A DNA stretch of 32,000 nt from Candidatus Scalindua sp. (GCA_031316235.1 JALDRA010000001.1:90001-122000); one strand, 5' to 3'. Shown: positions 139 through 17,010, numbered from the stretch's first letter. The notes: generated by a model from the letters alone, not told the origin. Numbers and translations are program-made.

Positions 139-264
139 AATTTAATGACAACGTTCCCCTGAGAGCTATGTATGAAGAGTGATGAATCACTCATTTTTGA
201 ATTTTGATTAGAATCGATGAAGGGAATTTTTTCCATTTTTCTTTTTTTAAATTTATCACGCCAC

Positions 265-458
265 ATGGCTGATGGCTCATGGCTGATGGCTGATGGCTCA
301 TAGCTCATGGCTGATGGTTAAGCGTTCAGAGGTTCAGCGTTCAAAGGTTCTGGGTTCAAGGTTCAGAGGTTCTGGGTTCAACGTTCTGGGTTCTGGGTTC
401 TGGGTTCAGCGTTCAAAGGTTCATGGCTCAAGGTTCAGGGTTGATGGCTGATGGTTGA
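265..458 (+). repeat. Heptamer/octamer tandem array 1 (GGTTCWG-type core flanked by ATGGCTSA-type units)
   Basis: Read directly: ATGGCTGATGGCTCATGGCTGATGG..., then GGTTCAG/AGGTTCAG/CGTTCAA/GGTTCTG units, then GTTGATGGCTGATGGTTGA. Abuts the stop codon of 4HB copy B1. Confidence 0.9.
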
Positions 459-461
459 TAA

Positions 462-796
462 TTATTTCGTGATTGTTTTCTTTATTGAATTACGCCATTT
501 ACCTTCAGCAATATACTAAAACCGATTTGGTTTTCGGTTTTTCTGAAAAACAAATCTTGGTGAAGGTATACTCGCTCCGTTTTTACTCGGATTTTATCCG
601 AAAACTATTATGAAATGAGTATATTTGCTGAAATTGATGTTGCGGATGATTCTAATTGTTCTATCAATCTATAATGATTGCGATCAGAATTCATTGTATC
701 TGCAATGCCAATAACACTCACTGCAAAATCTATAGATTTTTGCCTGACATCTAAATCTTCAAAACTAAACTTTATTTCACACATTTTCTCCATCAT
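462..796 (-). pseudogene. Four-helix-bundle (23S rRNA IVS protein / S23-IVP family) gene copy B1, internally deleted and split by a MITE
   Basis: ORF 608-796 (MMEKMCEIKFSFEDLDV..SISANI) matches the 74-aa copies at 6597 and 8298. The 3' tail (..RNSIKKTITK*) lies at 462-513, separated by a 110-bp insertion at 514-623. Confidence 0.8.
514..623 (-). mobile_element. Correia-like MITE copy C1, inserted in 4HB gene B1
   Basis: Empty site in B3/B4 reads cagcaaTAtttgctg. The filled site here reads cagcaaTA-tactaaaacc...atgagta-TAtttgctg. Confidence 0.85.
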
Positions 797-835
797 TAAC
801 CATCAGCTATGAACTATGAGCTATCAACCATGAGC

Positions 836-1030
836 TCTGTGCAATCTACGGATGAATGTTTTTAAGTTTTTCTGATAAAACGGTCTGTGTTACCGCTGCT
901 ATAGAATTTGAAGGGACGTCTCTGATTTACCACTCTGCCTCCACCAGCAATTGAGTTTCGTCCCAAACGTATTGATTACAGGGGGAGTTCCCAATGGGCA
1001 TATCGATACAAATCATGTCATTATGAGTTT
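836..1030. repeat. Conserved ~195-bp segment U (copy 1) upstream of the 4HB ORF
   Basis: Near-identical to 6861-7056, 8562-8757 and 16715-16910. Confidence 0.8.
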
Positions 1031-1175
1031 TATACTCATCTTATAATGGTTTTCGGGGAAAATCCGGGAAATAACGGAGCGGGTACAAGTCCTCGGCGTT
1101 TTTTGTCCGGGTAAAGTCCTCGGCGCCTGGTTTTGTCCGGGGATACCAGCAAGCCATGCTTTGGTTTTTAGTATA
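1031..1175 (+). mobile_element. MITE copy C2 (variant with duplicated GC-hairpin module)
   Basis: tatactcatcttataatggttttcgg...agtcctcggcg..gtccggg (twice)...ctttggtttttagtata. Confidence 0.8.
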
Positions 1176-1434
1176 TCACGCCAAGCCGCTAAGAACGTAA
1201 AGCATAAAAACTTTTAAAATCTTTCTCCTCGTAGCAGGCTAACAGTAAGTTCTCAAGTGATTTCACGTAGTAAAAGTTAAGTATTCCAATGAAACAATTT
1301 AAGCTTTTACAGGACAGGTGCAATGAGGTCTTTCTTCTTGTGTGAAAGGTAAAATCATTTTATAACAGGCATACTATCTACAGCTCCGCCCTCTCGGTTA
1401 CATTGCTTATGCAACTTACAGATATAAAGTGTTT

Positions 1435-1556
1435 GTTTGAACGAAAACTACCTATCTACGGCGTTACTGTAATAATGACGCAATCCTCACGTACTTGAGT
1501 ACGCTCCGGTTACCTAATTATTTCGCGCCTTGTACCTAAGCAGTTTTGGTTCAAAC
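1435..1556. mobile_element. IR-bounded 122-bp element J
   Basis: Left end GTTTGAACGAAAACTacctatctacggcg. Right end (reverse complement) GTTTGAACCAAAACTgcttaggtacaaggcg. Left-end fragments recur at 9003-9025, 18303-18340 and 24515-24572. Confidence 0.55.
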
Positions 1557-1986
1557 ACGGGGTATCCGTTCAACCCCAAGGTTTCCGTTCAACCCCAGGG
1601 TTTCTGTTCAAGCACTGACTATGTATACCCAATTACAGAAAACCCCGCCCAGAAATCTTTGTATTTCCACCATAACCCGAACAGGCAGAAGGTATCGAGT
1701 CAGTATATCCTGAACCACTCTTTCAAAATGACTACAACTACTTCCCTATAGTTGCTTATCTCCCTTTTGGGTATGTGCTTCAGCACAACAAAACAAGATG
1801 GTAAATACTTTTTGTTGTACTCCTCACTAATTCAATTCTCACTTTTTTGAAATGGGACTCCTATTTTGTCCTCAGCCTCCATTCAAATGGAAAATTGTTT
1901 TTGCACTGTTTTGGTTACTATGCCCCCCTGCCCGGAACCCGGAGGACGGGCGTACACTAACCCGGCCTGCAACGCAGTCTCGCCTG

Positions 1987-2778
1987 CTATGGTAATGGAT
2001 TAGAGAGATAATGATGGATCAGCTTTTTCCCCTCTTTTTTTATACCCTCGAAACGAACACCTATAGATGTTTTATGCTTCTCCCTATCCTGCCAGACACA
2101 GACTCCGTCTGTCTCAATAGTCATCAATTCGTCAAATAATTTGATCTTGATTTCAAAGCATCGCTTACCGTTTACTGATGGGTAATCAATTAGCTTTCCG
2201 TTTTCCAGACCAACGGCTGTAATTAAATCCGAAAAGATACCTCCTTTGCTTAAATTCAAGACGTTTGCCACACATTGAATAACACCATTCTGGCTGCATT
2301 GGTATTTGAATTCTTTCTGCCCAAACACCATAGCCCGCGCATGCTGCCTTCTCTTGATTCTATCTTTGACAGTATCGCCTATTTTCAGTATCTCCTCATT
2401 AACCAACGAAATAGCCTTTTCAGAATCTGTTTCATTAATCATCACAATGATATCTTCTTTTCCAGACAACCGTAAGATACTCCGAATATCTGTCTGCACA
2501 TTGAAGAGTCTGATCAGAATGCCTCTCTTTATAAAATAGTCAAATATGTTAATTCCAAGACCATCAATTTTCTGCACATGCTTCAGATCAATCAGCTGAA
2601 AATATTTCCCCTCATCTAAACAGGCAAACAGGTACTCCTGAAGAATCAGCGACTCTCTGCTGATTAAGTCACCCACAACCTCGATAAAGTTTACACTTTG
2701 ATTAGCTGCTTGTTTCGTTATAATTTCCATCGCTCTCTTTTTTCTTTTCAGATGATTACTGTTCGTATGTAATAACAA
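1987..2778 (-). CDS. STAS-domain / PilZ-domain fusion protein (putative c-di-GMP receptor); alternative start at 2730 (MEIITKQ)
   Basis: The N-terminal half resembles anti-sigma-factor antagonist STAS domains. The C-terminal half carries PilZ motifs RQHAR (RxxxR) and NLSKGG (D/NxSxxG). Confidence 0.7.
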   Translation of the reverse strand: MLLHTNSNHLKRKKRAMEIITKQAANQSVNFIEVVGDLISRESLILQEYLFACLDEGKYFQLIDLKHVQKIDGLGINIFDYFIKRGILIRLFNVQTDIRSILRLSGKEDIIVMINETDSEKAISLVNEEILKIGDTVKDRIKRRQHARAMVFGQKEFKYQCSQNGVIQCVANVLNLSKGGIFSDLITAVGLENGKLIDYPSVNGKRCFEIKIKLFDELMTIETDGVCVWQDREKHKTSIGVRFEGIKKEGKKLIHHYLSNPLP

Positions 2779-3028
2779 ACAATATGCCAGAATGCAGAAT
2801 ATGAAAATATAACATATAACATATCTATACCATTGATGTTAGGAAGGAACGGACTCTTCACAAAAATGACCAGGTGTTAATTTACTCACACCTGGAATAA
2901 CATACTTTCAGAATTATTTCGGTTGCTCTTGACGCAAAACAACTTAGAAACTGTTAAAAAACTAACAGGCTTATGTGAACTTTCTAACAGGTTATGCATT
3001 GCTAAGGTGATTGAGTGGCGGAGGGGTC

Positions 3029-3322
3029 ATGGCTGATGGCTCGTGGCTGATGGCTGATGGTTAAGCGTTCAGGGGTTCTGGGTTCAGAGGTTCGGGGTTC
3101 AGCGTTCAGGGTTCAGCGTTCAGGGTTGATGGCTGATGGCTCATAGCTCATGGCTCATGGTTAAGCGTTCAGAGGTTCGGGGTTCTGGGTTCAGAGGTTG
3201 ATGGCTCATGGCTCATGGTGGTTGGCTCATGGTTAAGCGTTCAGGGGTTCGGGGTTCAGAGGTTCGAGGTTCAGCGTTCAGAGGTTCTGGGTTCAAGGTT
3301 CAGGGTTGATGGCGGATGGCTT
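3029..3322 (+). repeat. Heptamer/octamer tandem array 2
   Basis: Three alternating blocks of ATGGCTSA units and GGTTCWG units, read directly. Confidence 0.9.
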
Positions 3323-3399
3323 AAAATTGATGGTGCATATAGCGAGATGGGTAAGAGGACAAGGCTGGAGGGGTTATGGCAGAAGGCACCTATCGTGAT

Positions 3400-3512
3400 T
3401 ATACTCATCTTATAATGGTTTTCGGACAAAATCCGAGATAAAATTGAGGGAGTATATCAGCAACCAAGATTTTGTTTCCGGTAAAACCGAAAACCAAATC
3501 GGTTTTAGTATA
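3400..3512 (+). mobile_element. MITE copy C3
   Basis: tatactcatcttataatggttttcggacaaaatccgag...aaaaccgaaaaccaaatcggttttagtata. Shares its terminal TA with C4 (tandem). Confidence 0.85.
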
Positions 3513-3844
3513 TACTCATCAGATAATAGTTCTCGGAGAAAATCCGGAAAAAAACGGAGGGGGCAAAGTCCTCGGAGCCTGGGGAAAGTCCTCGGCGCTT
3601 TTGTCCGGGGATACCATCAATCAGGCTTTGGTTTTTAGAAAAATCCAGTAGTGTCCGGTTAGGTTTTTGCGTATTTAATTTATAGCCCCAAAACTGTCAT
3701 TCCCGCATGTTTTTAGCGGGAATCTATTATGAAACGAGTCTCTGGATACCCGATAAAGACGTTCGGGTATGACAAAAGCCGCCTACGCAAAAACCTAACC
3801 GGACAATGTTGAGAAAAATCTAAAACCAAAGTGGTTTTAGTATA
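3511..3844 (+). mobile_element. MITE copy C4 carrying a nested element E
   Basis: Left part runs to ...ggctttggtttttagaaaaatc (3645). It resumes at agaaaaatctaaaaccaaagtggttttagtata (3812-3844). Confidence 0.8.
3646..3811 (+). mobile_element. 166-bp MITE E copy 1 (21-bp perfect TIR, 9-bp TSD)
   Basis: TIR GTCCGGTTAGGTTTTTGCGTA at 3653-3673 and its exact complement at 3784-3804. Direct duplication AGAAAAATC at 3637-3645 and 3812-3820. Uninterrupted target sequence is seen in MITE copies at 7450-7470 and 18958-18978. Confidence 0.85.
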
Positions 3845-3917
3845 ATCTGCAGATTTAACGGGGCAAGGCCTCCAGATGTTTAAAACGAAACTTTGTTTCA
3901 TACATTTTCTCCACCAT
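3845..3917 (-). pseudogene. 5' stub of a 4HB gene (copy B2), followed upstream by inverted ATGGCTSA units (3911-3980)
   Basis: Minus strand atggtggagaaaatgtatgaaacaaagtttcgtttt parallels atgatggagaaaatgtgtgaaacaaagtttagtttt of the other copies. It is truncated at the MITE boundary. Confidence 0.6.
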
Positions 3918-3986
3918 CAACTCTCCAACCATGAGCTATGAGCAATCAGCTATGAGCTATGAGCAATCAGCCATGATCCATATGCC

Positions 3987-5183
3987 CTACGCCTGATTTC
4001 TTTCTCTTGATACAAATTCCTTTATTTTCTCACAAACCCTTATCTGCTGATCGTGAGTAAGCTGCGGATACATGGGCAGGGAGAGAATTTCTGATGCTGC
4101 AGCCTCTGATACAGGAAAATCACCCTCTTTGAAGCCGAGGTGTACATAGGCTTTCTGAAGATGAAGAGGTATCGGGTAGTGAAGACCTGTATCAATATCG
4201 TTTTCCGATAGATACGCTTGAAGCTTGTCCCGATTCTTTGTACGTATGATATAAAGGTGATATACTGCCTTTGACCATTCGGGTTCGTAGGGTGTCTTTA
4301 ACCCTTTAACACCGCAAAGTATTTCATTATAACGGTTGGCATTCTGATAGCGATTTTCGTTCCAGGATGAGAGGCGCCTGAGCTTGACCTGTAAGATCCC
4401 CGCCTGTATTGCATCAAGCCTGCCATTGTACCCCTCCCTTTCATGATAATATTTCCTTGTCTGTCCATGATCACGCAGCAGGCGTATTGTCCGAGCTATT
4501 TCTTTATCGTTTGTTGTTATTGCTCCCCCATCTCCAAGCGCTCCCAGGTTTTTCCCGGGATAAAAGCTGAAGGCTGAGACCAGGCCCATTGATCCGGCAA
4601 CTTCCCAGTCTCCAGTTCTTTTTGACTGATATCGAGCACCATGTGCCTGGCACGCATCTTCAACGACAACCAGTTTGTACTTATTGGCGATTTCCATAAT
4701 CGTATCCATCTCAGCCACCTGTCCATAGAGGTGGACGGGTACAACCGCTTTGACTGGTTTTCCGGTTGAGGTGTTAATGAGTTGCTGAGTTTTATGGTCA
4801 ACGCGGCATCTGGTTTCAATATATTCTCTTAACAGGGCGGGATTCATATTATAGGTACGTTCATCAACATCGACGAAAACGGGTAAAGCGCCTGCCTGCG
4901 ATATTGCCTCTGTTGTGGCAATAAAGGTGTTGGGGACGGTAATTACGATATCTCCCTCTTTTATTCCAGCAGCCATCAGGCCGAATCTCAGCGCATCTGT
5001 ACCGCTATTCAGGCCCACACAGTATTTTGTGTTACAAAACGCAGCAAAGTCATTTTCAAAACTTTCGACCATGGGTCCGCCTATAAATCCGGCTGTACGG
5101 AGGGCTTTTTTGAATACTGTCAGAAACTCTTCTTCCAGTTCTAAATGGGGATTGATCAGGTCGATGAAGGGGATATTTTTCAT
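3987..5183 (-). CDS. DegT/DnrJ/EryC1/StrS-family PLP-dependent sugar aminotransferase
   Basis: 398-aa ORF. The N-terminus IPFIDL...GGPMVESFENDFAAFCNTKYCVGLNSGTDAL and the overall length are typical of the family. Confidence 0.9.
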   Translation of the reverse strand: MKNIPFIDLINPHLELEEEFLTVFKKALRTAGFIGGPMVESFENDFAAFCNTKYCVGLNSGTDALRFGLMAAGIKEGDIVITVPNTFIATTEAISQAGALPVFVDVDERTYNMNPALLREYIETRCRVDHKTQQLINTSTGKPVKAVVPVHLYGQVAEMDTIMEIANKYKLVVVEDACQAHGARYQSKRTGDWEVAGSMGLVSAFSFYPGKNLGALGDGGAITTNDKEIARTIRLLRDHGQTRKYYHEREGYNGRLDAIQAGILQVKLRRLSSWNENRYQNANRYNEILCGVKGLKTPYEPEWSKAVYHLYIIRTKNRDKLQAYLSENDIDTGLHYPIPLHLQKAYVHLGFKEGDFPVSEAAASEILSLPMYPQLTHDQQIRVCEKIKEFVSRERNQA

Positions 5184-5208
5184 TTTTTGTAATCCTTTAG
5201 AGGTTAAA

Positions 5209-5320
5209 AGGTTCTGGGTTCAAGGTTCTGGGTTCAGCGTTCAAAGGTTCTGGGTTCTGGGTTCTGGGTTCAAGGTTCAAGGTTAAAAGGTTCTGGGTTC
5301 TGCGTTCTGGGTTCAAAGGT
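5209..5320 (+). repeat. Heptamer array 3 (no ATGGCTSA flanks), between the intact 4HB stop and the degT-like start
   Basis: GGTTAAAAGGTTCTGGGTTCAAGGTTCTGGGTTCAGCGTTCAAAGGTTCTGGGTTCTGGGTTCTGGG... Overlaps the last codons of ORF 5313-5684. Confidence 0.9.
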
Positions 5321-5684
5321 TATTGTAGGTTAGCAAATATTTTATGAAACCACGTATAGTTGCTCTTGTACGTCCGGCATGATCATACACATCCTGAAAA
5401 TCAGCTTTCGTTATGTATTGTTGATCCAATGCAACATACAGCTCACTTTGGACCTCGGTACAAGATCGTTTTGCATATCGAAGAAAACGAACAAACTCAG
5501 GATTTGACTCAGAATCGAATCCTTCAGCAATATTGTGCATAGAAGAACCTGCTGCCCCCTGAATCTGTCTTTTCAAACCAAAGTCGCTATTAAATTTTTC
5601 TCTGTTCGTCAGCTTATAAACTTTCTGAGTTAACTCCCGTGCTAACTGCCACGCCTCAATATCCTCAAACCGTTCTATTTTCAT
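5313..5684 (-). CDS. Four-helix-bundle protein (23S rRNA IVS protein family), apparently intact, distinct subfamily
   Basis: 123 aa. FEDIEAWQLARELTQKVY...IAEGF...EFVRFLRYAKRSCTEVQSELYVA is the family signature. SD-like aggtga lies upstream of the ATG. Confidence 0.9.
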   Translation of the reverse strand: MKIERFEDIEAWQLARELTQKVYKLTNREKFNSDFGLKRQIQGAAGSSMHNIAEGFDSESNPEFVRFLRYAKRSCTEVQSELYVALDQQYITKADFQDVYDHAGRTRATIRGFIKYLLTYNNL

Positions 5685-5706
5685 GTCATCACCTACGAAA
5701 GCTAAC

Positions 5707-5846
5707 TATACTCATCTCATAATGGTTTTCGGATAAAATCCGAGATAAAATTGAGCAAGTAAAGTCCTCGGCGCTTTTTGTCCGGGGATAACTGCAACCA
5801 AGCTTTGGTTTTTTAAAAAGCCAAAAACCAAATCGGTTTTAGTATA
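5707..5846 (+). mobile_element. MITE copy C5 (long variant)
   Basis: tatactcatctcataatggttttcggataaaatccgag...agtcctcggcgctttttgtccgggg...aaaaaccaaatcggttttagtata. Truncates the MazF-like ORF. Confidence 0.85.
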
Positions 5847-5988
5847 CATTTACAACAGGCAAAATTTGATTGATTTGGTCTTCGCTAATTACCATAACAG
5901 GGCGAGTCTTACCCTCCTCGGAGCCAATGGTTGGATGAAGATTAGCAAGATAAACGTTCCACCTAAAGAAGCCATTTATTACTGCCAC
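5839..5988 (-). pseudogene. MazF/PemK-family toxin, N-terminal ~47 codons only, truncated by MITE C5
   Basis: Own translation from GTG 5988: (M)AVINGFFRWNVYLANLHPTIGSEEGKTRPVMVISEDQINQILPVVNVY*. The ..dl.P..GSE.g..RPv.Vis.d motif is the MazF/EndoA N-terminal signature. The last codons and the stop come from the MITE. Confidence 0.7.
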
Positions 5989-6340
5989 TCCTCTAAGTCA
6001 ACGCATTTTAAATCTTCAGATATCTCTCTTAAATCACTCAAGAAAAGCTTATCCTGCATCACGTTTTTAAGTTCATTGATTTTGTTATACTCATCTCGTA
6101 ATGGTTTTCGGATAAAATCCGAGTTAAAATTGAGCGAGTATACCTTCACCAAGATTTGGTTTCCGGTAAAACCGAAAACCAAATCGGTTTTAGTATATTA
6201 TAATTATCAGTCTTTTTACGGAAAAATATAATGATCTCAATTGGATCGTTTTCTGGAACATGATCAGGAATCTTGATCAGAATCTCATGATTCTTGGGTG
6301 TTCTTACAATTTGCTTGATTGTATCCATATATTTCCGCAT
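5979..6340 (-). pseudogene. Putative antitoxin ORF split by MITE C6
   Basis: ORFs 6146-6340 and 5979-6182 share the MITE-derived middle. Deleting 6086-6195 (110 bp) fuses them in frame into an 83-aa ORF ending EEWQ*, which overlaps the toxin GTG by 10 nt. Confidence 0.6.
6086..6197 (+). mobile_element. MITE copy C6 (type copy, 108 bp plus TA)
   Basis: TA-tactcatctcgtaatggttttcggataaaatccgagttaaaattgagcgagtataccttcaccaagatttggtttccggtaaaaccgaaaaccaaatcggttttagta-TA. Removal restores an ORF. Confidence 0.9.
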
Positions 6341-6437
6341 TTGGGGTTAGAATTTCTTGATTTCTTTTAAGTTACATTACCCAAGATAAAAACTCAAGTA
6401 TTTTTCAGCAAATGACATTTAAGAATTAAAGTATATA

Positions 6438-6594
6438 GTTGATGGCGGATGGCTCATAGCTGATGGTTAAGCGTTCAAAGGTTCTGGGTTCTGGGTTCAG
6501 AGGTTCAGAGGTTCAGGGTTGATGGCTCATAGCTCATGGCGGTTGGCTCATGGTTAAGCGTTCAGGGGTTCAAGGTTGATGGCTGATGGTTGAT
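6438..6594 (+). repeat. Heptamer/octamer tandem array 4
   Basis: Read directly. Ends GTTGATGGCTGATGGTTGA, 5 nt before the stop of ORF 6597-6821. Confidence 0.9.
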
Positions 6595-6596
6595 AA

Positions 6597-6821
6597 TTAT
6601 TTCGTGATTGTTTTCTTTATTGAATTACGCCATTTACCTTCAGCAATATTTGCTGAAATTGATGTTGCGGATGATTCTAATTGTTCTATCAATCTATAAT
6701 GATTGCGATCAGAATTCATTGTATCTGCAATGCCAATAACACTCACTGCAAAATCTATAGATTTTTGCCAGACATCTAAATCTTCAAAACTAAACTTTGT
6801 TTCACACATTTTCTCCATCAT
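6597..6821 (-). CDS. Four-helix-bundle family protein, 74-aa in-frame deletion derivative (copy B3)
   Basis: Identical protein to 8298-8522. Compared with the 129-aa form reconstructable at 12065-12564 it lacks 56 internal codons (junction at GAATT). Confidence 0.7.
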   Translation of the reverse strand: MMEKMCETKFSFEDLDVWQKSIDFAVSVIGIADTMNSDRNHYRLIEQLESSATSISANIAEGKWRNSIKKTITK

Positions 6822-6860
6822 TAACCATCAGCTATGAACTATGAGCTATCAACCATGAGC

Positions 6861-7056
6861 TCTGTGCAATCTGCGGATGAATGTTTTTAAATTTTTCTGA
6901 TAAAACGGTCTCTGCTACCGGCTGCTATAGAATTTGAAGGGACGTATCTGGTTTACCACTCTGCCTCCACCAGCAATTGAGTTTCGTCCCAAACGTATTG
7001 ATTACAGGGGGAGTTCCCAATGGGCATATCGATACAGATCATGTCATTGTGAGTTT
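6861..7056. repeat. Conserved segment U (copy 2)
   Basis: Appears identical to 8562-8757. Close to 836-1030 and 16715-16910. Confidence 0.8.
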
Positions 7057-7169
7057 TATACTCATCTCATAATGGTTTTCGGATGAACTCCGGAAAAAAA
7101 CGGAGCGAGTACAAGTCCTCGGCGTTTTTTGTCCGGGGATACCACCAGCCAGGCTTTGGTTTTAGTATA
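7057..7169 (+). mobile_element. MITE copy C7 (GC-hairpin variant)
   Basis: tatactcatctcataatggttttcggatgaactccgg...acaagtcctcggcgttttttgtccggggataccaccagccaggctttggttttagtata. Confidence 0.85.
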
Positions 7170-7372
7170 TCACGCCAGGACGCTAAGAACGCAAAGCATA
7201 AAAACTTTTAAAATCCTTTATATACATCTTTTCCTGTAAAACAATAGACGCATCAACCACAACCTTGCCTATTTCATTTTCTGTCATTCTTCTTGCGTAA
7301 AAGGTAAAATTATTTTTTTAATTTCATATCCTTTGCGTTCTCTGCGGCTTTGCGAGAAACTATTTTTTGAAA
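7170..7372. repeat. Repeat H (203 bp), containing a GxxExxY-type gene stub on the minus strand
   Basis: Reverse-complement copy at 20105-20604 (with two insertions). Partial copies at 1176-1350, 10455-10515 and 12587-12670. Confidence 0.75.
7219..7287 (-). pseudogene. GxxExxY-type (PD-(D/E)XK_3) protein, N-terminal ~21 codons only
   Basis: Own translation: MTENEIGKVVVDASIVLQEKM then junk. The MTENEI..vvDaaI.vH..lG N-terminus is characteristic of the GxxExxY family, but the GxxExxY motif itself is missing. Confidence 0.55.
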
Positions 7373-7485
7373 TAGACTCATCTCATAATGGTTTTCGGTG
7401 AAAATCCGTGAAAAAACAGAGCGGGTAAATCAGCAGCCAGGCTTTGGTTTTTAGAAAAATCTAAAACCAACTCGGTTTTAGTATA
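7373..7485 (+). mobile_element. MITE copy C8 (variant without GC hairpin)
   Basis: tagactcatctcataatggttttcggtgaaaatccgtg...cagccaggctttggtttttagaaaaatctaaaaccaactcggttttagtata. Confidence 0.8.
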
Positions 7486-7494
7486 TTGCAAACA

Positions 7495-7698
7495 TTAACA
7501 ATGATTAACATCAAAAAAATTTGCTTCTTTTCCGATGTAACGTTTCAGTTCTTCAACATCAAATTTATCATACACCCTCCACCCCCGATAATTCCTCTTC
7601 GCTTTTTTGACTTTTCCTGTTTTTTCCCACCTCTTTATAGTCCTGGGAGTTATTCCTAACTTTTTTGCTACCTCCGTGATTGTCTTCATTTTATTCAT
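7495..7698 (-). CDS. Small MerR/excisionase-type helix-turn-helix protein
   Basis: 67 aa. TITEVAKKLGITPRTIKRWEKTGKVKKAKRNYRGWRVY resembles the MerR-like HTH of excisionases and of the N-terminus of IS607-type serine recombinases. No catalytic domain follows. Confidence 0.6.
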   Translation of the reverse strand: MNKMKTITEVAKKLGITPRTIKRWEKTGKVKKAKRNYRGWRVYDKFDVEELKRYIGKEANFFDVNHC

Positions 7699-8006
7699 GA
7701 GAAAAAAACCTTTCTTTCATCACTTTACATTTTATAGAATAGGAGCTCCCCCAAAAACTTATCTGATGATCATAATCAACAAATTCATCAAAACACTTGT
7801 ATATGCTTAACAATTTCTATACCTGACCAGGTAATTAAATAGTAAATTGTCTATAACCATTTGAAAAAACAGGAGCTTAAAACTTTTACCCCTCTGGGAA
7901 CCGTTGTCAGTGTGTCTGTTTTTCTTTACACTATTTCAGTATAATTGAAATTGTGAGTCCTGGGATTGAGATGTGTGCGTTGGTTGGGAAGAGGCTATAG
8001 TACGTC

Positions 8007-8294
8007 ATGGCTGATGGCTCATGGCTGATGGTTCTGGGTTCTGGGTTCAGGGTTCAGAGGTTCGGGGTTCAGCGTTCAGAGGTTCTGGGTTCTGGGTTGA
8101 TGGCTCATGGCTCATGGCGGATAGCTCATGGTTAAGCGTTCAGAGGTTCTGGGTTCAAGGTTCAGCGTTCAGAGGTTCGAGGTTCAGGGTTCAGAGGTTC
8201 AAGGTTCTGGGTTCTGGGTTCTGGGTTCAGAGGTTCGGGGTTCAGCGTTCAGAGGTTCTGGGTTCTGGGTTCTGGGTTGATGGCTGATGGTTGA
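8007..8294 (+). repeat. Heptamer/octamer tandem array 5
   Basis: Read directly. Two GGTTCWG blocks separated by an ATGGCTCATGGCTCATGGCGGATAGCTCATGG block. Confidence 0.9.
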
Positions 8295-8297
8295 TAA

Positions 8298-8561: not shown

Positions 8562-8757
8562 TCTGTGCAATCTGCGGATGAATGTTTTTAAATTTTTCTG
8601 ATAAAACGGTCTCTGCTACCGGCTGCTATAGAATTTGAAGGGACGTATCTGGTTTACCACTCTGCCTCCACCAGCAATTGAGTTTCGTCCCAAACGTATT
8701 GATTACAGGGGGAGTTCCCAATGGGCATATCGATACAGATCATGTCATTGTGAGTTT
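8562..8757. repeat. Conserved segment U (copy 3)
   Basis: Appears identical to 6861-7056. Confidence 0.8.
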
Positions 8758-8853
8758 TATACTCATCTCATAATGGTTTTCGGATAAAATCCGAGATAAA
8801 CGGAGCGAGTACAAGTCCTCGGCGTTTTTTGTCCGGGGATACCAGCAGCCAGG
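8758..8853 (+). mobile_element. MITE copy C9, 3'-truncated
   Basis: Matches C7 up to ...ggggataccagcagccagg, then diverges. Confidence 0.75.
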
Positions 8854-9171
8854 CGGCTGGTATTTGGTGAAATGGCCAATGAGCTTCTCCTATCAAGCAC
8901 ACGAGTAGTACCAAAAAGGCTTTTAGAGTCATGATACCATTTCCAATATCCAGAACTTGAAAATGCCCCGGACCATATTTCACATTCAACATAAGTTATT
9001 GGGTGGCTGAACGAAAACTGCGCGGAGAGGGAAGTTTGGGTCATGGTTGAGGTATGACAGTACCTGGTTGATTGACAGCGCTTTGTCCCAAAGCTTTCGC
9101 CCTGTACCTTGCGTCTTCAATCATAAGCCATGAGCTAATATGCCATATACCATAAGCACTTGTGCAGGCTT

Positions 9172-9748: not shown

Positions 9749-9860
9749 TATACTCATCTCATAATGGTTTTCGGATAAAATCCGAGATAAAATTGAGCGA
9801 GTATACCTTCACCAAGATCTGGTTTCAGGTAAAACCGAAAACCAAATCGGTTTTAGTATA
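9749..9860 (+). mobile_element. MITE copy C10
   Basis: Near-identical to C6. Confidence 0.9.
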
Positions 9861-9949: not shown

Positions 9950-10062
9950 TATACTCATCTTTTAATGATTTTCTGATAAATTCCGTGAAAAAACAGCACG
10001 GGTACAAGTCCTCGGCGTTTTTTGTCCGGAGATATCAGCAATCTAGCTTTGGTTTTAGTATA
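9950..10062 (+). mobile_element. MITE copy C11 (diverged GC-hairpin variant)
   Basis: tatactcatcttttaatgattttctgataaattccgtg...acaagtcctcggcgttttttgtccggagatatcagcaatctagctttggttttagtata. Confidence 0.8.
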
Positions 10063-10071
10063 TCACGCCAC

Positions 10072-10450
10072 ATGGCTGATGGCTCATAGCTGATGGTTCA
10101 GCGTTCAGGGGTTCTGGGTTCAAGGTTCAGGGTTCAGAGGTTCAGCGGTTCAAGGTTCAGAGGTTCAGGGTTCAGAGGTTCAGAGGTTCAAGGTTCAGAG
10201 TTCAGAGGTTCTGGGTTCAGGGTTCAAGGTTCAAGGTTCAAGGTTCAGGGTTCAGAGGTTCAGAGGTTCAAGGTTCTGGGTTAAGCGTTCAGGGGTTAAG
10301 CGTTCAGGGGTTCTGGGTTCTGGGTTCTGGGTTCAAGGTTCTGGGTTCAAGGTTCTGGGTTCAAGGTTCAAGGTTCTGGGTTCAAGGTTCAAGGTTCTGG
10401 GTTCAAGGTTCTGGGTTCTGGGTTCTGGGTTCAGGGTTGATGGCTCATGG
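10072..10450 (+). repeat. Heptamer/octamer tandem array 6 (longest, ~380 bp; no 4HB ORF attached)
   Basis: Read directly. Includes GGGGTTCTGGGTTCTGGGTTCTGGG at 10307-10331 and a second four-run G tract near 10413-10437. Confidence 0.9.
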
Positions 10451-10625
10451 GGTAAAGATGTAGTAGATATTCATCGCGATCTCTGCGGCTTTGCGAGAAA
10501 CTATTTTTTGATATACTTATCTGCCGGAAGATTTTAAAGAAATTACCATTCAAACATATCTTTTTACCTTCTCTTAAAATTATGGTACACTGCGGCCTTT
10601 GAAACCTTACAAACCAGGAATTTTT

Positions 10626-10988
10626 ATGTCTATTTTTTCCGTTTCTCCAAAAAAGGAGCAGGCTCTTCTTGAGCGAATGAAGCAGTTACATGTTCGTGAA
10701 GACGATATTGAAGAAAAATTTATCTCTTCTTCCGGCCCGGGAGGGCAGAAGGTGAACAAGTCATCCACCTGTGTGCAGCTTCGCCATATCCCTACAGGCT
10801 TAACAGTAAAATACCAGCGGGAGCGCTCACAATCTCTCAATCGTTTTTTTGCACGCCGCTCTCTTCTGGATGAAATAGAACGGAAAGAAAACGGTACGGT
10901 GACGGCAGAACAGAGCCGTATTGAAAAAATCAGACGTAATAAGAGAAAAAGAGCAAAACGAACAAAGGATAAATATAAAAATACCTAG
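10626..10988 (+). CDS. RF-1 (GGQ) domain protein, ArfB/ICT1-like peptidyl-tRNA hydrolase
   Basis: SGPGGQKVNKSSTCVQLRHIPTGLTVKYQRERSQSLNR is a class-I release-factor catalytic domain, and the C-terminal tail is lysine/arginine-rich. ATG at 10626 preferred over the TTG at 10599 used by the ORF track. Confidence 0.8.
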   Translation: MSIFSVSPKKEQALLERMKQLHVREDDIEEKFISSSGPGGQKVNKSSTCVQLRHIPTGLTVKYQRERSQSLNRFFARRSLLDEIERKENGTVTAEQSRIEKIRRNKRKRAKRTKDKYKNT

Positions 10989-11081
10989 CATATTTTAATG
11001 CAAGAGGTTACACTTTCCACAACGTATAGTGTCTTATTCAATAGCAGGAAGCACGTTTGATCACGAAAGGGAGAATATAGT

Positions 11082-11849
11082 ATGAAAAAGTGCATTATTT
11101 TTTCTCTGGCAAACTTAAAAGGTGGGGTTGGAAAGACCTCAATAACCGTTAATTTAGCCGGATCATTAGTAACAGACCATGAGAAAATCCTGCTTATTGA
11201 CAATGATCCCAATGGCAATCTGTCATCTCATTTCGGACTGGTAATTAACGAAGAAAGCTATACCGTGGAAGACGTCTATGTCTCGAAGAACCCTCCCGGT
11301 ATATTTGATATGGCTGCTGAAGTAAGACCCAATTTGTGGGTTCTGGCTTCCAGCCCGGGTCTGGGGAGTGTTGTTTCGTATCTATCTTCCAAACCAAACC
11401 GGGAAATGCGTCTGAAAAACTTCCTCGATAAAACAAAAAAAGAGTTTGATTATATCCTGATCGATAATCCTCCTTCTTTAAATATACTTACCATAAACTC
11501 ATTAGTAGCCTCAAACCGGGTAATTATTCCAACCCAGTTAGAAGACTTTTCGGTGGAAGGTGTACAGAAAATCAGTAAAACGATTCAGGATATTAAGAAA
11601 CAGTTTAATCCGGAATTGAAAATCCAGGGAGTGCTGCCTAATATGGTAAATGACAGAAGAAATATCAGCAGATCTGCCCGTGAAAAATTGGAGAGTTTTA
11701 AGGTTCCCATCTTTAAATCCAGTATCCGAGCCTCTGTTAAAATACCTGAAAGTGCCGAAATGTATAAACTACTTATGGAACACGGGAAAAGTTCCGCCGT
11801 TTACGGAGATATTCTGAATTTCAGAGATGAATTGCTCAGTACCCTATGA
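11082..11849 (+). CDS. ParA/Soj-family ATPase
   Basis: Deviant Walker A KGGVGKTS at residues 13-20. 255-aa length and the DNPP motif are typical. No parB adjacent. Confidence 0.85.
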   Translation: MKKCIIFSLANLKGGVGKTSITVNLAGSLVTDHEKILLIDNDPNGNLSSHFGLVINEESYTVEDVYVSKNPPGIFDMAAEVRPNLWVLASSPGLGSVVSYLSSKPNREMRLKNFLDKTKKEFDYILIDNPPSLNILTINSLVASNRVIIPTQLEDFSVEGVQKISKTIQDIKKQFNPELKIQGVLPNMVNDRRNISRSAREKLESFKVPIFKSSIRASVKIPESAEMYKLLMEHGKSSAVYGDILNFRDELLSTL

Positions 11850-11910
11850 GACAGATATGGGTTCAGGGAAATATACTTTAACGGTCCGGATGGAAAGGTT
11901 TTAGTATATC

Positions 11911-12066
11911 ATGGCTCATAGCTCATGGCTCATGGCTGATGGTTCAAGGTTCAGAGGTTCAGCGTTCAGGGTTGATGGCTGATGGCTGATGGTTCAGCGT
12001 TCAAAGGTTCTGGATTCTGGGTTCAGAGGTTCAAGGTTCAGCGTTCAGAGTTGATGGTTCAGGGTT
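11911..12066 (+). repeat. Heptamer/octamer tandem array 7
   Basis: Read directly. Preceded by a MITE right-end remnant ggttttagtata (11897-11908). Confidence 0.9.
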
Positions 12067-12564
12067 ATTTCGTAATTGTTTTCTTTATTGAATTTATGAG
12101 ACTTGAAAGTTGTTTACCTATTGTATCTCCTACTATTCGTAAATCATTAAGCTTTGAATTGGAGATCCAATTCTTTTTGTAAAATATAGTTAAAAAAGTA
12201 ATTGTTTCAAATAGTGAGCCCCGTGCAATATATAGATATTGGATGAATTCTTTTTGGAATTACGTCCTTTCCCTTCAGCAATATACTAAAACCGATTTGG
12301 TTTTCGGTTTTTCTGAAAAACAAATCTTGGTTGCAGTTATACTCGCTCCGTTTTTACTCGGATTTTATCCGAAAACTATTATGAAATGAGTATATTTGCT
12401 GAAATTGATGTTGCGGATGATTCTAATTGTTCTATCAATCTATAATGATTGCGATCAGAATTCATTGTATCTGCAATGCCAATAACACTCACTGCAAAAT
12501 CTATAGATTTTTGCCAGACATCTAAATCTTCAAAACTAAACTTTGTTTCACATATTTTCTCCAT
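12065..12564 (-). pseudogene. Four-helix-bundle gene copy B5: undeleted (129-aa) form, disrupted by a MITE and a 1-nt frameshift
   Basis: After removing 12284-12394 and adding one A to the run at 12251-12255, the minus strand reads MEKICETKF...SISANIAEGKGRNSKKEFIQYLYIARGSLFETITFLTIFYKKNWISNSKLNDLRIVGDTIGKQLSSLINSIKKTITK*. Confidence 0.75.
12284..12394 (-). mobile_element. MITE copy C12 in 4HB gene B5 (same TA as C1 and C15)
   Basis: cagcaaTA-tactaaaaccgatttgg...atgagta-TAtttgctg. Confidence 0.85.
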
Positions 12565-12586
12565 CTTTAACCATCAGCTATGAGCC

Positions 12587-12622
12587 ATCAACCACAACCT
12601 TGCCTATTTCATTTTCTGTCAT
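12587..12622 (-). pseudogene. GxxExxY-type gene stub (12 codons) fused to the upstream IR of 4HB copy B5
   Basis: Minus strand ATGACAGAAAATGAAATAGGCAAGGTTGTGGTTGATGG = MTENEIGKVVVD. Confidence 0.45.
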
Positions 12623-13344
12623 TCTTCCTGGCGATCCCTGCGGCTTTGCGAGAAACTATTTTTTGATGTAAAAAATTCAATTATCCTGTTTGCAACATCA
12701 TGTTCTCTCCCGATATAGAAGTGGTCGCACTCTTGTAAGATTTCAAGCCTCTTCGGTTCAGCCATTGCCGACACTCCTTTTTTCACTTCCTCAATAGGCG
12801 TCGCAAAATCATTGTCTGCACAAACAATGTACTTAGGTTTCGTACAGTCAGCTAAGACATGAGTCTTAAACCTGCCGAATGGTAAAGAGATGAGTGCAAA
12901 TGAGCGGATCCTCTCATGCCGTGCACTGAGCATCATTGCAACTATTGCGCCAAATGAATATCCAACAGCATATATCACGTCTGAGCCGGTGACTGATTCA
13001 AGAAATTCCAGTGCCGCAGATGCATCCGCTAATGCGTCCGCGTAATCATCATTATTCAAGACATCTTCCCAGTAATTGTATTGTTCAGCGACATTCTCAA
13101 AACAGCTTTCGCTCTTACCGACACCGCAATAGTTAAACCGTAATGTGACAAACTCTCTCTCTGCAGATTCGCTGGCAAGTGTTGTAATTACATTATTATC
13201 CATATCACCACCAAGATGGGGATGGGGCGGACATAAGAGGAGTGCCGGAGGATTAATGACCTCTTCATCATAAGAGATAATCCCCTCTACCTTCATACCT
13301 CCTGATTTGAAATAGACGTGCTCCTCAATCATTACAATCAGCAT
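12619..13344 (-). CDS. Alpha/beta hydrolase (COG2945-like); the ORF track extends it to 13440
   Basis: PPHPHLGGDMDNNV, RFNYCGVGKSE and the nucleophile elbow GYSFGA. The last 15 codons (SKNSFSQSRRDRQEE*) are encoded by repeat H sequence. Start chosen at MLIVMIEEH by family length; no clear SD at any candidate start. Confidence 0.75.
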   Translation of the reverse strand: MLIVMIEEHVYFKSGGMKVEGIISYDEEVINPPALLLCPPHPHLGGDMDNNVITTLASESAEREFVTLRFNYCGVGKSESCFENVAEQYNYWEDVLNNDDYADALADASAALEFLESVTGSDVIYAVGYSFGAIVAMMLSARHERIRSFALISLPFGRFKTHVLADCTKPKYIVCADNDFATPIEEVKKGVSAMAEPKRLEILQECDHFYIGREHDVANRIIEFFTSKNSFSQSRRDRQEE

Positions 13345-14208: not shown

Positions 14209-15953
14209 TCAGTTTTCAGAACCAGGTTTCACCTGAACTTTACATCTTTCTAAATGAATTTCTCCATCCTCTATAACAGCCTTGATATTGTCCCCTGCCT
14301 GAAATTTCCTGTTCACAATACACAGGGAGAGCGTGTTTTCCATCTCACGATCAATTTTGCCCTCTTGAGTGGCCGGGCACCATACCGGAGATCATATCCA
14401 TCAGACACAAGCTTTTCTTTTACCTCGAGTTCAATGTGAAGAGTAAGGTTATTGTCCTCCAATCTCCGGGTAAGCTGAGAGAGAAGTATTTCCAGAATAC
14501 GGGCTATATGCTCTTTCGACAGCGAATGAAAAACGATCATATCATCTAACCGATTGATAAATTCAGGTTTGAAATATTTCTTCACCTCAGAGAGGACAAG
14601 ATCTTTGGCTTCATCGTGGCTTATGATTCCAGGGCCTGCTTTAAAGCCGATTTCCTGTTTTTCCGCAAGCTTCTCACTTCCTATATTTGAAGTCCCGATG
14701 ATAATGGTATTTCGAAAACTTATCGCGTGGCCCTGTGCGTCAGTGAGCCGCCCCTCATCAAGTACCTTAAACAGCATATTGAAAACATCAGGATGCGCCT
14801 TTTCCACCTCATCAAGCAGTACCACGGCGTACGGAACACGCTTTATCTTTTCCGTAAGCTGTCCCCCCTCTCCATACCCTACATAACCAGGCGGGGATCC
14901 AATAAGTTTTGCAACTTCATGGCGCTCCATATATACTGACATATCCAGTCGAACAATACGTGTCTCATCATCAAACAGGAATTCAGCCAATGCCTTTGCC
15001 AACTCAGTTTTCCTGACCCCTGTCGGCCCAAGAAAGAGAAATGCACCAATAGGCCTTGATACCTCCCTGAGTCCTGCCCTGTTTCTTCTTATCGCATCAG
15101 CAATCGCCCTTACCGCAGCTTCCTGCGCAACAATTCGTTCATGAATCTTCTCTTCCATATGTGCCAGCTTTTCCGCCTCACTCTCAAGCATCCGTATTGC
15201 AGGTATACCTGTCCAGCTGGAAACAACAGCGGCAATGTCCTCGGATGTAATCGAACTGTCTTTTTCTTTCAATTCCTTTTGCCACTTTTCCTTCTGAGCG
15301 GCAAGCTTGGTTTCGATCACCTGGAGTTTTGCATGATGCTTTGTCGCCTCCTCAAAATCCTGCTGTTCAAATGCCTCTTTTTTAAGAGCGGTGTGTGTTC
15401 TTTTTTCGTTTTCTAATCTTTTAATTCCAGGTGGTGTATAATGCAATTCAAGATGCTTCTTTGAACCTGCTTCATCCAGTAGATCTATTGCCTTGTCAGG
15501 TTGCGCCCTGTCAGTTATATAGCGGTCAGAGAGCCGCGCAGCTGCATCTATCGATTCCGGGGTATAGGTAATCTCATGATGTTTTTCATAATAGGATTTC
15601 AGCCCTACAAGGATCTGTTTCGTCTCCTCAATCCCTGGTTCGCTTACTGTTACTGTCTGAAATCTTCGTGCAAGCGCCTTATCCGATTCAACATATTTAC
15701 GGTAATCATCGTAGGTAGTTGCACCTATGAGCTGCAGCTGGCCCCGAGCGAGTGCAGGCTTAAGGATGTCGTGCGCCCCCATACCGCCACTCCCTCCCCC
15801 GCCCCCGATACCAACGACGGTATGTAATTCATCAATAAAAAGGATAAACTCTGAAGTGAAAACATTACGCTTCATATTGACCTGTTCCATGGTCCCGATG
15901 TTTGTGGCATCGAGCACTTTCTTGGTACAATATCTTATATATTTCTGAAGCAC
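14209..15953 (-). pseudogene. clpC: ClpC-type AAA+ chaperone, probably pseudogenised (5' part missing, P-loop substitution, 3' frameshift)
   Basis: ORF 14313-15953 starts inside NBD1 (..ILFIDELH). It has a short M-domain with a UVR-like QDFEEA motif and an NBD2 Walker A reading GPTGVRKT instead of GPTGVGKT. After GARPLKRA a T-run at 14355-14358 shifts the frame. The +1 frame continues IDREMENTLSLCIVNRKFQAGDNIKAVIEDGEIHLE to a stop at 14209. Confidence 0.7.
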
Positions 15954-16074
15954 TGCATATCTCCCTGCTGGTAATTTCTATCGGATCACAGGAGCTTATA
16001 AAGGCATATCCACGTAAACTGATAGCTGAGGTTATTGATTATATAGGATCGTTCTTCATGAATACAAACTTATT

Positions 16075-16159
16075 TATACTCATCTCATAATGTTTTTCGG
16101 ATAAAATCCGAAATAAAATTGAGCGAGTATACCGGAAGCCAGGCCTTGGTTTTAGTATA
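16075..16159 (+). mobile_element. MITE copy C14 (short 85-bp variant)
   Basis: tatactcatctcataatgtttttcggataaaatccgaaataaaattgagcgagtataccggaagccaggccttggttttagtata. Confidence 0.85.
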
Positions 16160-16168
16160 TCACGCCAC

Positions 16169-16336
16169 ATAGCTCATGGCTGATGGCTCATGGTTCAGGG
16201 GTTCAGGGGTTCTGGGTTCTGGGGTTCTGGGTTCAGAGGTTCTGGGTTCAGAGGTTCTGGGTTCTGGGTTGATGGCTCATGGTTCAGGGGTTCAGGGGTT
16301 CTGGGTTCTGGGTTCTGGGTTGATGGCTGATGGTTA
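16169..16336 (+). repeat. Heptamer/octamer tandem array 8
   Basis: Read directly. Two blocks with 5-6 consecutive G3-4 runs spaced by TTCA/TTCT. Confidence 0.9.
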
Positions 16337-16340
16337 ATAA

Positions 16341-16675
16341 TTATTTCGTGATTGTTTTCTTTATTGAATTACGCCATTTACCTTCAGCAATATACTAAAA
16401 CCAATTTGGTTTTCGGTTTTTCTGAAAAACAAATCTTGGTGAAGGTATACTCGCTCCGTTTTTACTCGGATTTTATCCGAAAACTATTATGAAATGAGTA
16501 TATTTGCTGAAATTGATATTGCGGATGATTCTAATTGTTCTATCAATCTATAATGATTGCGATCAGAATTTGTTGTATCTGCAATGCCAATAACACTCAC
16601 TGCAAAATCTATAGATTTTTGCCAGGCATCTAAATCTTCAAAACTAAACTTTGTTTCACACATTTTCTCCATCAT
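16341..16675 (-). pseudogene. Four-helix-bundle gene copy B6, internally deleted and split by a MITE
   Basis: Same structure as B1. ORF 16487-16675 plus a tail at 16341-16392. Confidence 0.8.
16393..16502 (-). mobile_element. MITE copy C15 in 4HB gene B6
   Basis: Same insertion point and near-identical sequence to C1. Confidence 0.85.
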
Positions 16676-16714
16676 TAACCATCAGCAATGAACTATGAGC
16701 TATCAACCATGAGC

Positions 16715-16910
16715 TCTGTGCAATCTGCGGATGAATGTTTTTAAATTTTTCTGATTCAATGGTATCTTTTACCGGCTACTGTAGAATTTGAAGGGACGTC
16801 TCTGCTTTACCACTCTGCCTGCACCAGCAATTGAGTTTCGCCCCAAACGTATTGAGTACAGGGAGAGTTCCCAATGGGTATATCGATACAGATCATGTCA
16901 TTGTGGGTTT
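16715..16910. repeat. Conserved segment U (copy 4, most diverged)
   Basis: Aligns with 6861-7056, with scattered substitutions. Confidence 0.8.
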
Positions 16911-17010
16911 CATACTCATCTTATAATGGTTTTCAGATAAAATCCGAGAAAAAAAGAGCGAGCGTACCAGCAGCCAGGCTTAGGTTTTTAGAAAAATCTA
17001 AAACCAAACC
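16911..17010 (+). mobile_element. MITE copy C16, 3'-truncated
   Basis: catactcatcttataatggttttcagataaaatccgag...ccagcagccaggcttaggtttttagaaaaatctaaaaccaaacc. Confidence 0.7.

Follow-up and report, generated by a model that had tools for sequence, protein, structure and literature searches.

A four-helix-bundle gene bracketed by inverted heptamer arrays in Candidatus Scalindua, a proposed element of the rRNA intervening-sequence type in mRNA operons

Four-helix-bundle loci and their heptamer arrays

We analysed a 32,000-nucleotide stretch of Candidatus Scalindua sp. (GCA_031316235.1 JALDRA010000001.1:90001-122000), hereafter the window, in which a small gene of the four-helix-bundle family (S23-IVP/Avd type) occurs at seven loci, all on the minus strand and each joined to arrays of a 7-base repeat. 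Together they represent one intact and six broken copies of a gene bracketed by inverted heptamer arrays. An earlier note, made from the sequence alone, had described these seven loci and a recurring unit of heptamer arrays, inverted units, conserved leader and transposable element of the miniature inverted-repeat kind (MITE); matches to PF05635 and TIGR02436 and the arrays delimited by Tandem Repeats Finder (TRF) bear out both descriptions. The note had overlooked an eighth array, at 10071-10453, which lacks an open reading frame (ORF). With moderate confidence, we read the loci as elements of the intervening-sequence (IVS) type living in mRNA operons, whose 3′ arrays have expanded locally and of which a dead copy has spread by recombination.

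The intact copy (5313-5684, minus strand, 123 aa) scored 100.5 bits against PF05635 (cutoff 33.8) and 95.3 bits against TIGR02436 (cutoff 24). The four ORF fragments scanned (608-796, 6597-6821, 12379-12564 and 16487-16675) reached 35.6-56 bits, over the 33.8-bit cutoff, and the profile check that the earlier note had proposed was thereby passed by the intact copy and all four. The translation of 8298-8522 is identical to that of the 6597-6821 ORF, and its family call rests on that identity. N, I, A, E and G of the NIAEG core are invariant in the protein alignment. PDB 2GSC matches window-type proteins with E=6e-11 (intact 123-aa copy) and 8e-12, and PDB 2RLD matches P0001, an intact protein of the repeated type introduced below, with E=2e-8 and the intact 123-aa copy with only 3e-3; each entry holds five chains. 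The 123-aa protein, 24% identical to P0001, forms a distinct subfamily. A scan of viral contigs with it as query gave no match, and a phage collection yielded only two unannotated ones. An exact 34-mer of the cassette ORF had no match when searched in one genome per GTDB species, a set of representatives from which the source genome and close strains are absent, and an exact-protein look-up of the neighbouring DegT protein returned no record.

Period-7 arrays with the plus-strand consensus GGTTCAG were delimited by TRF at 316-442, 3059-3307, 5202-5321, 6480-6520 and 8030-8278, with further arrays of this type at 10095-10438, 11941-12066 and 16192-16321; they span 4-48 units. Their left ends carry ATGGCTS units, and inverted ATGGCTS units stand just right of the ORFs (798-836, 3929-3976, 6823-6861, 8524-8562 and 16677-16715). 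On the coding strand, the 5′ units are of the AGCTCAT/GGCTGAT type and the 3′ units of the ATGAGCY/NNGAACC type. In this genome, 17-48 units of NNGAACC variants make up the expanded 3′ arrays; the variants are one or two substitutions away from ATGAGCC, and the arrays show higher-order periods too. No array of the GGTTCAG/ATGGCTS type lies beyond 16715 and MITE copies run on to about 32000, in agreement with the earlier statement that the cassettes stop after about 17 kb and the MITEs go on.

The other six loci are here called cassettes A to F, and all of their features lie on the minus strand. Cassette A consists of a 3′ array at 264-460 (ATGGCTS units 264-317, GGTTCAG-type units 316-442, closing units 443-460), a pseudogene at 462-796 with a ~170-bp internal deletion and a MITE at 512-623 (Pfam, NCBIfam, alignment), and a segment at 798-1206 made up of 5′ inverted units (798-836), the conserved leader (837-1030) and a MITE (1031 to about 1206). 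The 3′ array of cassette B (3015-3330) has a higher-order 72-bp period. Its other end (3850-3976), immediately downstream of the DegT gene, retains 5′ units (3929-3976) and a MITE-truncated 5′ ORF stub of ~20 codons; between array and stub lie MITEs at 3400-3512, 3511 to ~3640 and ~3833-3845, the last abutting the stub, and a 190-bp repeat at 3641-3830. This repeat, one copy of which thus stands among the MITEs that destroyed cassette B, recurs at 20153-20342 with 89% identity.

The intact gene has a 3′ array of NNGAACC units (5202-5321) whose first unit is the TGA stop codon and which ends 19 nt ahead of the DegT start codon. On its 5′ side (5685-5846), a unit remnant (GTTAGCTTTCGTAGGTGATGAC) has been shortened by a MITE at 5707-5846. 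Cassette C has a 3′ array (6436-6596), a 74-aa pseudogene with the internal deletion and no MITE (6597-6821), and a segment at 6823-7205 with 5′ units (6823-6861), leader (6862-7056) and MITE (7057 to about 7205). In cassette D, a 3′ array of ~35 units (8005-8297) is followed by a pseudogene identical to copy C (8298-8522) and by 5′ units, leader and a MITE (8758 to about 8860) within 8524-8860. The solo minus-strand array at 10071-10453, with ~48 units the longest in the window, has a MITE on its left (9950-10062) and a 49-bp repeat on its right (10467-10515). Cassette E comprises a 3′ array (11909-12066), a full-length gene (12065-12564) killed by a MITE (12282-12394) and a frameshift, and 5′ units (12566-12596); it lacks the leader, and a 49-bp repeat comes next at 12622-12670. 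Cassette F opens at 16075-16340 with a MITE (16075-16159) joined via TCACGCCA to the 3′ array (16168-16340), continues with a pseudogene that has both the deletion and a MITE at 16391-16502 (16341-16675; Pfam, alignment), and ends at 16677-17022 with 5′ units (16677-16715), leader (16716-16910) and MITE (16911-17022).

No Rfam family, rRNA included, reached its gathering score anywhere in the window, a tRNA scan gave no tRNA, and the flanks are protein-coding genes. Among the scanned window ORFs there was no match to a reverse transcriptase (RVT) family, and nothing resembling one appears in the ORF lists for the 32 kb. No template/variable repeat (TR/VR) pair was found, every direct-repeat family detected in the window being a MITE, an array or a cassette. 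As the earlier note had held, the loci lie outside rRNA and do not belong to a diversity-generating retroelement (DGR).

Dead copies and their local spread

In an alignment of the copies from which the MITE in E had been removed, all five near-identical copies (A, C, D, E and F) are pseudogenes. The description of the repeated copies as near-identical fits these five; it does not fit the stub of cassette B (3850-3917), which is only ~82% identical to the others (81.7% to copy C). Between copies C and D, a stretch of 511 bp (6574-7084 and 8275-8785) agrees without a single difference, which upholds the identity reported earlier for 6580-7085 and 8281-8786. Copies A, C, D and F have one common internal deletion of ~170 bp, across which the protein reads AEGKWRNS joined directly to IKKTITK and a stop codon. 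Copy E is full length and frameshifted. Copies A, E and F each contain a MITE, inserted at the central TA of the palindrome TTCAGCAA-TA-TTTGCTGAA.

Once its MITE and frameshift are discounted, the gene of cassette E matches the intact P0001 gene of L001, an independent ENA contig, at 99% identity, and the reconstructed undamaged protein is 100% identical to P0001 (129 aa). The P0001 gene has the same leader, 5′ units and 3′ units and a MITE. A DDE_5-family transposase gene (687 aa, L001 7589-9652) ends ~140 bp before the leader of intact P0001, and the matching position in the window copies is held by a MITE.

One paralogue has been copied at least five times within 17 kb, along with a ~165-195-bp leader and adjoining MITEs. 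Since four copies share one deletion, the spread came after the death of the gene and was independent of the copy's own product. The amplified unit takes in DNA that is not part of the element, the leader and the MITE junctions being identical between copies, and the homology stops at differing points inside the right-hand MITE, which favours ectopic recombination or gene conversion over precise transposition. A dead copy would thus have spread locally by one of these two routes, using the flanking MITEs and arrays and not an activity of the ORF. The distributions of the deletion (A, C, D, F) and of the MITE (A, E, F) form a reticulate pattern, which points to gene conversion, precise MITE loss or repeated insertion at a palindromic TA hotspot. 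The earlier note had suggested a cassette that propagates itself or is maintained by gene conversion; conversion or recombination is credible, and self-propagation is not, since the repeated copies are dead. The expansion of the arrays, with higher-order periods, fits slippage or unequal exchange, and two near-identical metagenomic loci (L100 and L104) differ by one array unit, a kind of difference that suggests that arrays change length through slippage.

A syntenic 2.9-Mb contig (L090, ctg321940 of ERZ25072999), whose ParA has 91% amino-acid identity to that of the window, allows a comparison of the kind that the earlier note had proposed. The two sequences are about 80-85% identical at the nucleotide level and share the order MerR, LysM, RF-1, ParA, ClpB, acyltransferase, GlmS. 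The 20.8 kb of L090 compared contain no tandem repeat at all and no cassette homology. Relative to L090, cassette E is inserted, as a segment of ~820 bp, after the ParA stop codon and before the gene that follows, and cassette F lies in an insertion that brings the intergenic space to 1.2 kb in the window versus 300 bp in L090.

The MITEs of the window are ~112 nt long (longer variants reach ~150 nt); they have TACT...AGTA ends, duplicate a TA target and contain internal hairpins. The 32 kb hold about 25 of them, for example at 3400-3512, 6086-6197 and 9749-9860, and beyond the cassettes at 18345-18456, 20443-20555 and 22861-23000. A filled site reads CAGCAA-TA-MITE-TA-TTTGCTG where the empty site reads CAGCAATATTTGCTG. 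Small, with short terminal inverted repeats, a TA duplication and many copies, the family is IS630/Tc1-mariner-like; no IS630/Tc1-like transposase partner was identified in the window. The copy at 9749-9860 is orthologous to L090 8530-8672, which has an extra 31-nt internal insert, so the MITE family is older than the arrays and cassettes at these sites. A 49-bp repeat (…CTCTGCGGCTTTGCGAGAAACTATTTTTTGA…) at 7326-7374, 10467-10515 and 12622-12670 is related to an extended MITE end; at 12622-12670 it gives an alpha/beta-hydrolase ORF its last codons and stop codon. Short-read contigs of the same genome (SRR28338161/2) match the window at 10486-11885 (99.7%) and 20580-23266 (100%) and end at repeats; the arrays and MITEs explain why the assemblies break at these positions.

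Several further differences separate the window from L090. Window 1573-7496 corresponds to L090 2941-3201, so that a 5.9-kb block holding a PilZ/STAS gene, cassette B, DegT, the intact four-helix-bundle gene and cassette C is absent from L090. The best relatives of DegT are only 65% identical and come from Acidobacteriota, and the block may be a horizontally acquired island. The neighbours of the cassettes had been called housekeeping genes, a label that the ClpB-like ORF at 14313-15953 (minus strand, 546 aa) contradicts: compared with the intact 817-aa gene in L090, it is a pseudogene missing ~730 bp of the N-terminal region and altered at the C-terminus. L090 in turn carries a group II intron-type reverse transcriptase (5169-6416; RVT_1 and GIIM) in a segment absent from the window. 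The closest organism-named ParA homologue, at 84% identity, belongs to a Planctomycetes metagenome-assembled genome, and the closest named relatives of the repeated four-helix-bundle protein, at 85% identity, to Ca. Kuenenia stuttgartiensis.

The bracketed design across phyla and its insertion into operons

The earlier note knew of no described element that combines an ORF with a satellite in this way. The combination is general for the protein family across phyla: an ORF within inverted heptamer arrays is the norm in Planctomycetota (Kuenenia), in many metagenomic lineages, in Cyanobacteria and in Bacteroidota. We collected 80 metagenomic loci with relatives at 51-80% identity, of which 67 non-redundant ones were used for statistics. 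Flanks were scored by local alignment of the upstream flank with the reverse complement of the downstream flank. The controls were 299 ORFs, for which the 80 loci of a DegT search were reused; these loci also yielded three extra four-helix-bundle genes. The median inverted flank score was 15.5 for the 67 loci, against 7.5 for direct flanks, 7.2 for shuffled flanks and 7.5 for the control ORFs. Fifty-four of the 67 exceeded the 95th percentile of the controls (10), whose maximum was 12.5, and window copies A, C, D, E and F scored 12-20.

Period 7 alone stands out, with 20/28 matches versus 10-12 for all other periods from 4 to 12. The units vary from locus to locus (AGCTCAT, AGCTGAA and AAGCTCG are examples), and the flanks of one locus match each other better than they match those of different loci (15.5 vs 9.0, p = 2.7e-13). 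There are ~5 units per side at the median, a figure biased upward by the detection threshold. The orthologue of Ca. Kuenenia stuttgartiensis, at about 3.084 Mb of CP049055, has GCTGATA/ATGGCTGA units on both sides. Among named cyanobacterial and Riemerella examples, which belong to more distant subfamilies, 8 of 11 exceed the control maximum. Nostoc edaphicum has (GGGAGTA)x8 upstream and (TCCCTAC)x5 downstream of the gene; the flank units are GGGTGTA and TACACCC in Calothrix, GGTGACA and TGTCACC in Anabaena sp. 90, and GGTTCAA and TTGAACC in Riemerella, whose unit is that of the window arrays. The bracketed design also occurs in Geminocystis, Nostoc sp. ATCC 53789, Stanieria and Picosynechococcus.

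In the metagenomic flanks and the window arrays, many heptamer units hold a stop codon (TAG or TGA), 3′ units often hold ATG, and the start codons of downstream genes are often within the last array units. A period of 7 shifts the reading frame from one unit to the next, so that an array offers these codons in every frame. Stops in all three frames occurred in 66% of upstream flanks against 21% of controls, although control flanks are often coding and we do not rely on this figure.

In the metagenomic relatives, the four-helix-bundle gene and its neighbours run in the same direction in a ratio of 51:4 downstream and 53:6 upstream, and the spacers are short. Polysaccharide-biosynthesis operons house most relatives of the repeated copy: ~13 of 20 scanned downstream neighbours are polysaccharide or sugar-nucleotide genes, among them epimerases, phosphomannomutase, DegT, WecG, CpsB, Wzt, Wzz, Wzy and a carbamoyltransferase. 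The intact window copy, too, stands ahead of a DegT gene. Heptamer-flanked four-helix-bundle genes also occur in cas loci, between cas6 and cas4 or between cas10 and cmr3, as in Anabaena sp. 90 (L176), Picosynechococcus PCC 7003 (L177) and Pseudanabaena galeata (L175). An earlier survey recorded these genes as a CRISPR association (PMC3936711). The association of 23S_rRNA_IVP genes with CRISPR may reflect passenger insertions.

Two related Nostoc plasmids show that the elements are discrete insertions of ~440-510 bp that fit precisely into the gap from a stop codon to the start codon after it. Plasmid pNPUN02 of N. punctiforme (L179) has a four-helix-bundle element where Nostoc sp. ATCC 53789 reads TAG-GTT-ATG; at the junction that follows, plasmid pNsp_c of ATCC 53789 (L173) carries another, different element and N. 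punctiforme reads TAA-TTT-ATG. The insertions thus occupy adjacent junctions of the same operon, and each plasmid is the empty site for the other. The pNPUN02 insert consists of array, ORF and array only, and the arrays are therefore its ends; the ATCC 53789 insert has ~35 nt of non-array sequence beyond its 3′ array. At the first junction, GGTTCTAG / GATTCTGA may be an imperfect duplication.

Proposed elements of intervening-sequence type, rival explanations and known systems

An S23p ORF in the loop of a stem formed by terminal inverted repeats is the anatomy of the 23S IVS, and from this match we infer an IVS-like element in mRNA operons. Such an element would be transcribed from a host promoter, which would explain its co-orientation with the neighbouring genes. 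Its two arrays would pair in the host transcript, and RNase III would then probably excise the ORF-bearing RNA from the polycistronic transcript, by analogy with the 23S IVS. A homopentameric protein might, speculatively, bind about five heptamers per side. For the Kuenenia element, window copy C and the intact element of L001, computed folding predicts a terminal stem of 20-35 bp in both the minimum-free-energy and the centroid structure. Sigma-70 promoter and terminator scans of the leader and the intact copy gave no minus-strand site and no excess over shuffled sequences, a result uninformative for a planctomycete.

Several observations weigh against this reading. The z-scores of the whole-element folds are modest (-2.7, -1.7 and -1.2). 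G·U mismatches between the arms are not in excess of A·C ones (84 vs 79), and transversions are numerous, so there is no positive sign that selection maintains RNA pairing on the sense strand; the arms may be kept as inverted protein-binding sites or as DNA-level termini instead of an RNA helix. About 7 of the 67 metagenomic loci and the Pseudanabaena example have direct and not inverted arrays, and a MITE has removed most of the 5′ arm of the intact 123-aa copy. Cassettes E and F and the Nostoc sites showed no clean target-site duplication, and the element does not encode an insertion enzyme.

We weighed four other explanations. Composite transposons, in which two MITEs of IS630/Tc1-like type with TA duplications bracket array, ORF and leader and are moved by a transposase acting in trans, would account for the two same-orientation MITEs that bound cassette F, for the MITE-end/array junction TATCACGCCA-CATRGCT that recurs at 255, 10051 and 16148, for the identical MITE-leader junction in A, C, D and F, and for the TA flanking the MITE insertion in the ORF. 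We consider this unlikely: the differing ends of homology inside the right-hand MITE fit recombination better, cassettes E and F have no shared outer target duplication that we could find, cassette E lacks both leader and right-hand MITE, and the window has no transposase of the IS630/Tc1 type. The module could instead be a contingency locus of the host, with slippage-prone arrays that tune or phase-vary the downstream operon and a protein that regulates by binding the arrays and is no selfish passenger. Tight placement inside co-oriented operons, frequently ahead of polysaccharide genes, speaks for this, as do unit numbers that differ between near-identical copies and between Coxiella strains and downstream start codons that often fall in the last units; heptamer repeats acting with an RNase III-targeted element in the 5′ untranslated region are reported to drive phase variation in Haemophilus (PMC12721329). 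Yet rRNA, cas operons and functionally unrelated plasmid operons contain the same module, its presence differs between close relatives at different junctions of one operon, and most window copies are dead, without a following gene to regulate; we consider a regulatory device of the host improbable.

An ordinary host gene family whose flanks gather simple repeats, with the window copies as segmental duplications and nothing mobile involved, would suit the confinement of all copies to 17 kb in one orientation and the 511-bp identity of C and D, only 1.7 kb apart. It would leave unexplained that units differ between loci while the two arms co-vary, that the filled and empty Nostoc sites are discrete insertions, that L001, an unrelated genomic region, holds one more near-identical copy, and that between the window copies stand unrelated genes in synteny with a genome free of cassettes; we give it very little weight. 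Least credible of all are degenerate DGR parts or an artefact of assembly. Although the protein family includes Avd, the 32 kb hold no reverse transcriptase and no TR/VR-like pair; although assembly is difficult at repeats, where short-read contigs of the same genome end, the copies differ in specific mutations, MITE presence and flanks, and the same cassette is found in an independent assembly. Both readings were rejected on these grounds.

The reading as IVS-type elements draws on a known system. The earlier note had held that neither known context of the protein family explains the cassettes; an ORF within inverted repeats is, however, the anatomy of the 23S IVS, and heptamers occur in that of Coxiella. 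There, an ORF of the same family lies on an IVS with a 28-bp terminal stem cut by RNase III, and a variable number of tandem GACAGAT heptamers stands just before its ATG (PMC4990558). The 23S IVSs with an S23p ORF in Leptospira, Coxiella burnetii, Xanthomonas and Brucella resemble the window elements in having a PF05635 ORF in the loop of a terminal-inverted-repeat stem; such an IVS is transcribed only within the host transcript, and its ORF often decays (PMC4990558). The window elements differ from them in lying between protein-coding genes and not in rRNA (no Rfam match), in having multi-unit heptamer arrays of up to 48 units as arms and in occurring in many copies per genome; their excision is proposed by analogy.

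Other systems share single features. Avd of DGRs is a homopentamer according to published work and has the same four-helix-bundle superfamily fold, the PDB relatives 2GSC and 2RLD having five chains each, but the window lacks a reverse transcriptase and a TR/VR pair, and Avd genes have not been described as bracketed by inverted heptamer arrays. Repetitive extragenic palindromes with their associated tyrosine transposases (REP/RAYT), and MITEs, offer a parallel in that a short motif flanks a small gene in inverted orientation, is also dispersed alone (as at 10071-10453), and dead copies are amplified; the window protein, in contrast, is neither an HUH nor a DDE transposase, and its repeats are tandem heptamers and not single palindromes. 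Intergenic TAACTGA heptamer arrays are known from Beggiatoaceae (PMC4679880). Like the window arrays, these and the short tandemly repeated repetitive (STRR) sequences of cyanobacteria are tandem intergenic heptamers near start codons, with variable copy number and a patchy phylogenetic distribution; the host here is a planctomycete, and the repeats are of the same kind without belonging to the named cyanobacterial families. To our knowledge, and in the literature searched, no particular gene family has been linked with STRR or TAACTGA arrays. In the cyanobacterial plasmids examined here, STRR-like arrays bracket four-helix-bundle genes.

The protein family, the rRNA IVS, the heptamers of the Coxiella IVS, the unexplained arrays of cyanobacteria and Beggiatoaceae, and the genes in cas loci are all already known. 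Searches of open-access papers and preprints brought up no description of an ORF in inverted heptamer arrays between operon genes, and a prior account elsewhere is possible; a link between heptamers and this family appeared in the open literature only as the Coxiella heptamer note and the cas-locus association, with no link to STRR. We tentatively suggest, as a possibility short of an even chance, that PF05635 genes with inverted heptamer arrays form a widespread class of small elements whose insertion sites lie precisely between the genes of transcribed operons; the 23S IVS would be the rRNA case of this class and STRR-type arrays its footprints, and a presumably pentameric protein would engage about five heptamers in each arm and aid processing or propagation.

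The origin and mobility of the 23S IVS and the role of the S23p ORF have been unexplained since the early 1990s. The meaning of the tandem heptanucleotide arrays (STRR, TAACTGA) of cyanobacteria and other bacteria is likewise unexplained, and the four-helix-bundle genes that recur in operons of cas, polysaccharide and other genes have been taken, without further explanation, for candidate accessory genes. If ORF and inverted arrays are one type of element, these three puzzles, so far unconnected, would become one testable problem, and labels given through guilt by association, such as CRISPR-associated 23S_rRNA_IVP, would need to be re-read as passenger insertions.

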